Source: Isurus oxyrinchus
Lineage: Eukaryota
Reading direction: 5' to 3'
Length of the DNA stretch: 64,000 nucleotides
Assembly (NCBI GenBank): GCA_026770705.1
Contig: JANJGN010000323.1
Coordinates: forward strand, 496,001-560,000
Below the pieces are notes generated by a model, which saw only the letters and a program-made list of their open reading frames with translations, did no database searches and was not told the DNA's origin. Shown in pieces: positions 10,293 to 11,339 of this stretch. A program made the translations under genes and the position numbers. How positions within the stretch are numbered: the stretch's first letter is position 1; every line of letters begins with the position of its first letter.

Positions 10293-11052
10293 GTAAGTGT
10301 GAAGGTTTAATTGGTTGTTTTTGAACATGTTTTCTTCAACCTTCTCTCCGTATAGAAAGAACTTGCATTTCTATAGCACCTTTCACAACCCAAAACCCTC
10401 CACAACCCCTGAAGAGCTTTGATGTTCACTCACTGTTTAACATCTCATCCAACACTCAATGTTTCACAACTCAGTCCTGTAACAGGCAGTGTTGACCTGG
10501 ACCATAAAATACCTTGTGACTTCCTGAGGATGTGAAAGGGGATATATAAATGAAGACATTTCTTTTGTTAGTGAATGCAATCTCTTTCCATTTTCAGAGT
10601 CTAGCTCACTCTCCCTCTTATCTCCACTAATAACCTCCTTCTCATTCTCTCTCTCATTCACTCTCTCTCCAATCTCCACTAATGCTCTCCTTCTCATTCT
10701 CTCTCTCATTCACTCTCTCTCCAAACTCCACTAATGCTCTCCTTCTCATTCTCTCTCTCGTCCTCTTACACGTTGTTCAGTCTCTCACACATTTTAAACG
10801 GGCGCTGAGCAACATCTGTTCCTTCAGAAGATCCACCTCAACACCTGGAGTGAGCAGTGAATTGAAACTCACTCAACGACAGCTCAGCTTTACACAGGAA
10901 TTACGTCACAGAGTCAGGACACAAAGGGTTAACAGTTTGCTTACAACACAACACTAAGGCCCTACGTTTCAATGAAAGGGTTTTCACAATTGTTCCCCAA
11001 TTCCTGATTTGACTCACAGAGACACATCAACCCTTTCTCATTAAATACACAG

Positions 11053-11137
11053 AGGGAGCAGCACAGGAAGAGGTCATTCAGCCCAAGCAGAGCGTGTGGG
11101 CAGTTCCTCCCCAGGCGAGCAGTCGGACAGGTCCTGG
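11053..11137 (+). CDS. Gene A: candidate cytoplasmic exon (KGSSTGRGHSAQAERVGSSSPGEQSDRSW), a copy of the 5' non-coding exon
   Basis: tacacag acceptor, gtaagt donor, 85 nt open in phase 2-0, bridging the TM exon to 11649; nearly identical to 15221-15305, 23966-24050 and 45963-46047. Confidence 0.45.
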
Positions 11138-11339
11138 GTAAGTAACGGAATGATTGGAATTCACTTCCACCACCAACACCGTCCTTTGTTGATGTTGTGA
11201 CTTTATAAAGACAGATTCCAATGATTGATGCCTTTGAAAGATTTCTACTGATTATTGAGATCTGGGTGTGAGACTCAAGTCTGTTGTACAGAACATCTTT
11301 CTGGTTAAATTATGCAGACAGGTTACACACAGTCTACCA

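Follow-up and report, generated by a model that had tools for sequence, protein, structure and literature searches.

The window analysed here, a 64,000-nucleotide stretch of an Isurus oxyrinchus genome assembly, sits inside a group of tandemly arranged Siglec-like genes on contig C323 of that assembly (G000), and the closest named matches to its genes are white shark and basking shark proteins. Gene A has its 5′ end upstream of the window, and its leader, V, C2, transmembrane (TM) and tail exons are all open. The V exon, which also lies upstream of the window, encodes YFFRIEF with an F-strand arginine, which we assume to have the role known for this residue in the V-set domain of CD33-related Siglecs, and P0004, a close homolog of gene A, has Pfam matches to V-set and Ig_CD22. 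Further features of this Siglec type that are present in gene A are C2-type Ig domains, a TM segment and cytoplasmic tyrosine motifs. Judged by its sequence, gene A is likely Siglec-like, and sialic acid binding is at most predicted. Its tail contains the motifs YENC, YANC and SVYGNL; we take the YxN motifs to be predicted Grb2/SH2 docking sites, and presumably SVYGNL alone among them fits a loose ITIM. Gene C, unlike gene A, carries a canonical-looking ITIM and ITSM pair. The join between the C2 and TM exons of gene A (8931 to 10196) is present in contigs of presumed RNA. The features discussed below are as follows:

10196–10292, plus strand: gene A TM exon (phase 1-2), with a membrane span without a charged residue and 77% identity to the gene C TM exon
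10907–10938, plus strand: promoter-type flank remnant in the tail copy, matching one promoter lineage at 31/32 positions
10998–11010, plus strand: degraded PU.1-like word, class-specific, intact in 0/7 tail and 29/32 promoter copies on contig C323
11053–11137, plus strand: exon X, the first cytoplasmic exon of gene A (85 nt, phase 2-0, 28 codons), included or skipped
11059–11085, plus strand: 27-nt LINE-like core of X; 25 of its 27 positions agree with the 3′ end of a dispersed LINE in antisense, and the flanks are dissimilar
11138–11302, plus strand: intron part common to promoter copies (165 nt, 95–97%), the 3′ end of the homogenised tract
11649–11753, plus strand: tyrosine exon Y1 (phase 0-0), with the YENC motif and the skip-frame stop at 11743–11745
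12291–12407, plus strand: last coding exon Y2, with the YANC and SVYGNL motifs and the stop
15221–15305, plus strand: promoter-type X of gene B, before the leader exon, with the acceptor moved by 2 nt
15714–15796, plus strand: leader exon of gene B, containing the ATG, to which promoter-type X is spliced
23966–24050, plus strand: promoter-type X of gene C, before the leader exon
40520–40601, plus strand: gene C 82-nt exon (phase 2-0), which follows the TM exon as X does in gene A and is unrelated to X, for comparison
45963–46047, plus strand: promoter-type X of gene D, before the leader exon, with all 85 nt the same as in the tail copy

The block that contains exon X (10982/10990–11302) is 92.9% identical to 15146–15470, 95.8% identical to 23905–24215 and 96.5% identical to 45900–46212 (E ≤ 5e-137 for each). 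The similarity breaks off abruptly at 11302, with no leader behind it in gene A. These comparisons bear out the central observation of the first-pass annotation, namely that the block preceding the leaders of genes B, C and D recurs, without a leader, between the TM and tyrosine exons of gene A; its placement of the block start near 10920 was fair, given the 31/32 match of 10907–10938 to promoter copies. X is bordered by a CAG acceptor and a GTAAGT donor and is open in frame 2-0, the TM exon ends in phase 2 and Y1 starts in phase 0, so that phases and splice sites agree with the earlier suggestion that an 85-nucleotide segment with an AG acceptor and an open 2-0 frame fits between 10292 and 11649. 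The peptide that X is predicted to contribute to the gene A tail is VGSSSPGEQSDR. The open frame by itself is weak evidence, as 40% of X shuffles are open in the same frame and X is open in all three; under the splice-site filter applied, X is the sole 2-0 candidate exon in its intron. The word at 10998–11010, which resembles a PU.1 site and for which PU.1 binding is putative, does differ between gene A and the promoter copies in the way originally described.

The gene A arrangement is a many-copy subfamily, not a single copy. Contig C323, over its whole 646 kb, contains 41 copies of X (32 before a leader, seven between TM and tyrosine exons, one hybrid and one orphan), and each of its eight A-type TM exons is followed by X. 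Across the assembly, the exact class words occur 56 times (tail) and 198 times (promoter), with 0 for controls; these counts may contain haplotype duplicates, such as loci L001 and L002, which are 99.7–100% alike. The order TM, block, Y1 is found in 30 of the 30 best genome matches. Because loci L001–L060 were picked for resembling the window, which biases them, loci chosen by class word were also counted. At those chosen by the tail word, a TM exon lies within reach in 49/51, Y1 in 50/51 and a leader in 0/51; at the 29 loci selected through the promoter word, which come from the first 100 of its 198 occurrences and lie on two contigs, a leader is present in 26/29, and TM and Y1 exons are each present in 0/29. 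Y2 exons make up 137 of the 142 matches in one genome search. We regard it as close to certain that one 85-nucleotide exon is put to two uses, lying before the leader in the majority of genes and, in a large subfamily, between the TM and tyrosine exons. Promoter-type X is a non-coding 5′ exon and a putative first exon.

Several loci depart from these two arrangements. The hybrid (G000:C323:440351–441360, minus strand) reads TM–X–leader, with Y1 and Y2 gone; it has a tail-type flank up to the broken word and promoter-type letters just after it, and it likely arose by unequal crossing-over inside the block. At L173 (G000:C52:763567–765867), a tail-type X runs straight into a 43-nucleotide minisatellite of the type found before B-type promoters (window positions 13742–15050), with the joint at a shared LINE-like motif and Y1 lost. 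The cluster also includes a second, MAG-like receptor family (G000:C121:1393135–1450548 and C150:586227–600354) with three tails, one of them X–Y1–Y2, which recurs in models from white and zebra shark, and a further one with another TM exon and a 133-nucleotide exon, W, before Y2.

Our RNA evidence consists of contigs from four of 20 listed runs (X1, X2, X4 and X6), presumed to be RNA, from three samples and two organisms; X1 and X2 are runs of one sample. Paralogs are indistinguishable in such contigs, so the joins are unassignable to the gene A copy, and rare forms are dropped. Both junctions predicted in the first-pass annotation were seen: the TM-to-X join (10292 to 11053) in two of the four runs, from two studies (X4 and X6), and the X-to-Y1 join (11137 to 11649) in X2 and X6 (a third run, X1, has loose ends there). 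The Y1-to-Y2 join occurs in X2 and X6, and one X6 contig consists of 71 letters of X, then Y1, Y2 and sequence beyond; no contig among the four runs spans TM–X–Y1. X is joined to a leader in three of the four runs (X1, X4 and X6). The contigs of these runs show no transcription starts. A join that skips X (10292 to 11649) is present in X1 and X2, and a 234-letter X2 contig (97 + 102 + 34 letters) has no space for X.

Inclusion of X gives a tail with three YxN motifs. Inclusion and skipping are both present, though in runs of different organisms, and the length of X, 85 nucleotides, is not a multiple of three. Skipping shifts the frame, so that no tyrosine is encoded and translation stops at 11743–11745, 8 nucleotides before the last junction; this skip-frame stop is also found in 26 of the 30 best-matching loci. 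By the 50–55-nucleotide rule, a stop that near the last junction escapes decay. The skip form is predicted to do so because of the position of its stop, and it would give a short, tyrosine-free tail; whether it amounts to a stable short protein we consider evenly balanced. An in-frame splice from TM to Y1 through the AG at 11652–11653 was considered and rejected, as the contigs use 11649 instead. A loose end in X2 at 12287 agrees in its letters with the terminal part of the other type of TM exon, joined straight to Y2; exon W, too, is therefore left out, with a shift of frame. Such skipping of the 2-0 exon may extend across the family. In X4 and X6, position 11139 shows a copy in which the donor GT has become GA and the intron is read through.

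Tail and promoter copies are 97.7% identical over X, 95–97% over the 165-nucleotide intron and 84% over the 65 nucleotides upstream; outside the block, their identity is about 55%, the level of shuffled sequence (57%). Promoter copies compared with each other are 60–66% identical upstream and 81–84% downstream. Over X and the intron, the two classes have no fixed differences and 10 shared polymorphisms, three of them at CpG, and one X haplotype is common to 10/48 tail and 9/28 promoter copies. FST between the classes is 0.07 for X (p 0.011, a slight class structure), 0.02 for the intron and 0.31 just upstream (−66 to −40), where the alignment is imperfect. The intact PU.1-like word is also absent from a second set of tail copies (0/30). 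An in-register AG is present in 51/51 tail versus 22/29 promoter copies, the losses belonging to one promoter lineage, and the difference in fully intact X (47/51 versus 22/29) is not significant (p 0.09). Tail variants in X mostly change residues, and there is no sign of selection on the X peptide. The AP-1 word TGACTCA was rejected as a promoter mark, being present in 5/7 tail and 6/32 promoter copies.

A diverged piece of the cluster lies inside a 19.9-Mb contig (G000:C34:15172603–15190806) and holds an old tail-type copy without Y1. This copy has the same broken word, its X is 91% alike, and TM, X and Y2 are all about 90% alike. Because the diverged copy shares the broken word, the mark that separates the classes is old. 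Old divergence of the classes combined with present near-identity argues that the tail and promoter copies of X are very probably kept alike by gene conversion, and the near-identity likely reflects conversion rather than a recent one-off duplication. The conversion tracts would end just 3′ of the PU.1-like word, with selection likely keeping that word intact in promoters and broken in tails and preserving the acceptor in tails; X itself would chiefly bridge the frame from phase 2 to phase 0 and act as a spacer. More tentatively, X may have formed a single conversion pool of 250 or more copies since modern sharks arose, with the classes apart just at the transcription-factor word and the acceptor, and the block may act both as a hinge for recombination through which receptors exchange tails and promoters and as an on/off switch for tyrosine signalling.

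An X-like peptide between the TM and tyrosine exons is found in automatic protein models of Carcharodon, Cetorhinus, Rhincodon, Stegostoma, Chiloscyllium and Mustelus, six sharks of three orders. Those three orders diverged in or before the Jurassic. As X-like tails occur across them, the coding tail use of X is, on this comparison of models, old. The whale and basking shark peptides have about 12 of 28 residues in common by an eye count, and indels keep the frame. RefSeq models already translate X in the tail (XP_041037225.1, Carcharodon; XP_048476476.1, Rhincodon; XP_048379657.2, Stegostoma; XP_078092346.1, Mustelus); they contain the same coding X but offer names only and are silent about conversion, the 5′ copies and the skip that shifts the frame. 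For promoter copies, the nucleotide data are those of the source genome and the two run organisms, and the dating covers the tail use alone. No ray or chimaera X-type tail was found among 10 matches, nor among 48 (10 named), which is a weak test. Two Cetorhinus models, P0006 and P0007, read TM–X–X–leader–V and are out of frame past the second X, representing either real read-through or a mapping artefact.

On the origin of the two uses, the first-pass annotation had offered exaptation of an untranslated exon or the reverse. The dual use stands; of the two directions, whose signal conversion would erase, promoter-to-tail is favoured. We think it fairly probable that the promoter use of X came first. 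The features of the sequence that favour this order are the promoter flank carried by tail copies to −146 (31/32), longer than splicing would require; a promoter class that forms the majority, is more varied, has far more diverse flanks and serves all three tail types; the unrelated 2-0 exons that fill the same slot; and the LINE-like core. X shows no significant homology to the gene C 82-nucleotide exon or to the 133-nucleotide exon W (p 0.10–0.90). The core has 44 dispersed exact look-alikes, versus 0 for the control, one of which adjoins a reverse-transcriptase frame; we take this dispersed LINE to be CR1. Extension of the match past 27 nucleotides was negative in 12 dispersed loci (flanks, p 0.76 and 0.91), and the splice sites of X fall outside it. 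A 48-column match to window position 19424, chosen post hoc, scored 47.5 versus 40 for the best of 5000 shuffles (nhmmer E 0.03). A LINE end is a possible source of part of X. Shark introns are rich in CR1-like LINEs, according to one preprint (10.1101/443036). Neither the intron past 11302 nor Y1 matches promoter intron 1 or the leader. Several points count against a promoter-first origin: the tail use alone has been dated, the acceptor is retained in most promoter copies, the LINE match is short and internal-to-first changes are the commoner in mammals (5527 versus 1319 first-to-internal changes between human and mouse; PMC11797052).

Under a promoter-first origin, a TM exon would have been spliced into the 5′ exon of the next gene through the ready AG of X, and recombination in intron 1 would then have attached the Y1/Y2 tail. 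The basking shark TM–X–X–leader models suggest that splicing from a TM exon to the next 5′ exon can happen. The last exon of the Y tail also closes a MAG-like gene, after a different exon. Taken as a whole, we hold with moderate confidence that X is a dual-use exon, that its old tail use derives from a borrowed promoter-side exon and that conversion keeps the classes alike.

The same data can be read in the opposite direction. An old cytoplasmic exon X could have gained an upstream PU.1 site, become an internal promoter, recombined onto a neighbour's intron 1 and spread as a family-wide 5′ exon. In favour of this order, the tail use is the only one shown in three shark orders, promoter copies on C323 mostly retain a good acceptor that they should not need (30/32) and the block is found before the leader in neither of the two MAG-like loci examined (0/2); the mammalian preference for internal-to-first change and a P-x-E-Q motif that X and W have in common by eye point the same way. 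We nevertheless consider this order unlikely, as the comparisons of X with W and the gene C exon are not significant, the prevalence of promoter copies across all tail types and diverse flanks would call for replacement of promoters throughout the family, and the promoter-like flank of the tail copies goes beyond splicing requirements.

There are two further readings. Tail X might act as a hybrid exon that mainly starts tail-only X–Y1–Y2 transcripts, the TM exon mostly skipping it: X1 and X2 list the skip and X-to-Y1 joins without TM-to-X, further GGAA/TTCC cores lie in X and its intron, and hybrid exons are common in mammals (PMC11797052). The TM-to-X joins in two studies, the in-frame tail X of six sharks with its frame-keeping indels and the lack of an intact word in both sets of tail copies (0/7 and 0/30) make this improbable, and a join missing from contigs, which lose rare forms, does not equal absence. 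The internal promoter raised in the first-pass annotation fails as the sole role of X and may be an extra one. A recent, functionless duplication of the promoter block into one intron would account for near-identity that extends into the intron, and the open frame is likely to arise by chance (40%); with at least 56 tail-type copies, spliced, and with tails in three shark orders contradicting it, this reading is hardly credible.

Hybrid first-internal exons have been described (Mick et al., PMC11797052; related bioRxiv 10.1101/2021.05.27.446076), and they likewise combine 5′ and internal use, with promoter motifs beside a 3′ splice site. In that account, one genomic exon plays both roles in one gene, whereas the roles of X are split over hundreds of paralogous copies at opposite gene ends, and X is non-coding in one role and coding in the other. 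Both uses of X are seen at the level of the family and not for a single copy; the Cetorhinus TM–X–X–leader models hint at a one-copy hybrid. Exon 7 of CEACAM1-L/S, as presented in PMC2490704, is likewise a small cytoplasmic exon that sets the tyrosine frame, its skipping leading to an early stop and a short tail. X differs from it in belonging to a Siglec-type receptor with a YxN-rich tail and in being shared with the family promoter, and we claim no homology. Conversion between primate SIGLEC11 and SIGLEC16, described in PMC5701461, likewise involves tracts over upstream, exon and intron sequence with near-identity within species. In that primate pair, corresponding positions are linked, one 5′ region with the other, whereas the shark tract pairs a non-coding 5′ exon with a coding tail exon: the shark copies show the sharp near-identity including the intron and the shared polymorphism of paired-Siglec conversion, and their positions are unlike.

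Hybrid exons, Siglec conversion, long and short tails and X in RefSeq tails were already known. Our literature search, which had subscription journals largely outside its coverage, found no description of a conversion pool that unites a promoter exon with a coding exon of the tail, and no paper on the dual use of X or on the cluster; PMC8455134 mentions Siglecs once in passing. The X family offers one exon that is non-coding 5′ and coding within a single gene family, with dozens of natural replicates in one genome. Its copies allow tests of the interconversion of first and internal exons, of how selection on one motif limits conversion tracts and of whether promoter constraints can shape a peptide. 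They also point to an undescribed third shark Siglec tail type with a CEACAM1-like long/short switch. The diverged C34 piece can serve as internal outgroup and help to locate the cluster. False read-through models over the shared exon are to be expected from short reads and automatic annotation.

Other observations concern the neighbouring exons. Y1 resembles a duplicate of Y2 (11613–11753 versus 12250–12407), with acceptor regions 84–86% alike and a similar KSN...YxNC pattern, and the white shark model P0002 omits Y1 in frame. In gene B, a TGA occurs near the start of the V exon (16516–16518), yet the TM exon encodes a buried arginine and is followed by a short tail (20177–20300), which is of the activating type. 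A 93-nucleotide C2 exon remnant at window positions 233–325 is in frame and was shortened between two short repeats. The first C2 exon of gene C (35695–35950) has no usual donor and is followed by just a 73-nucleotide piece of the next C2 type.
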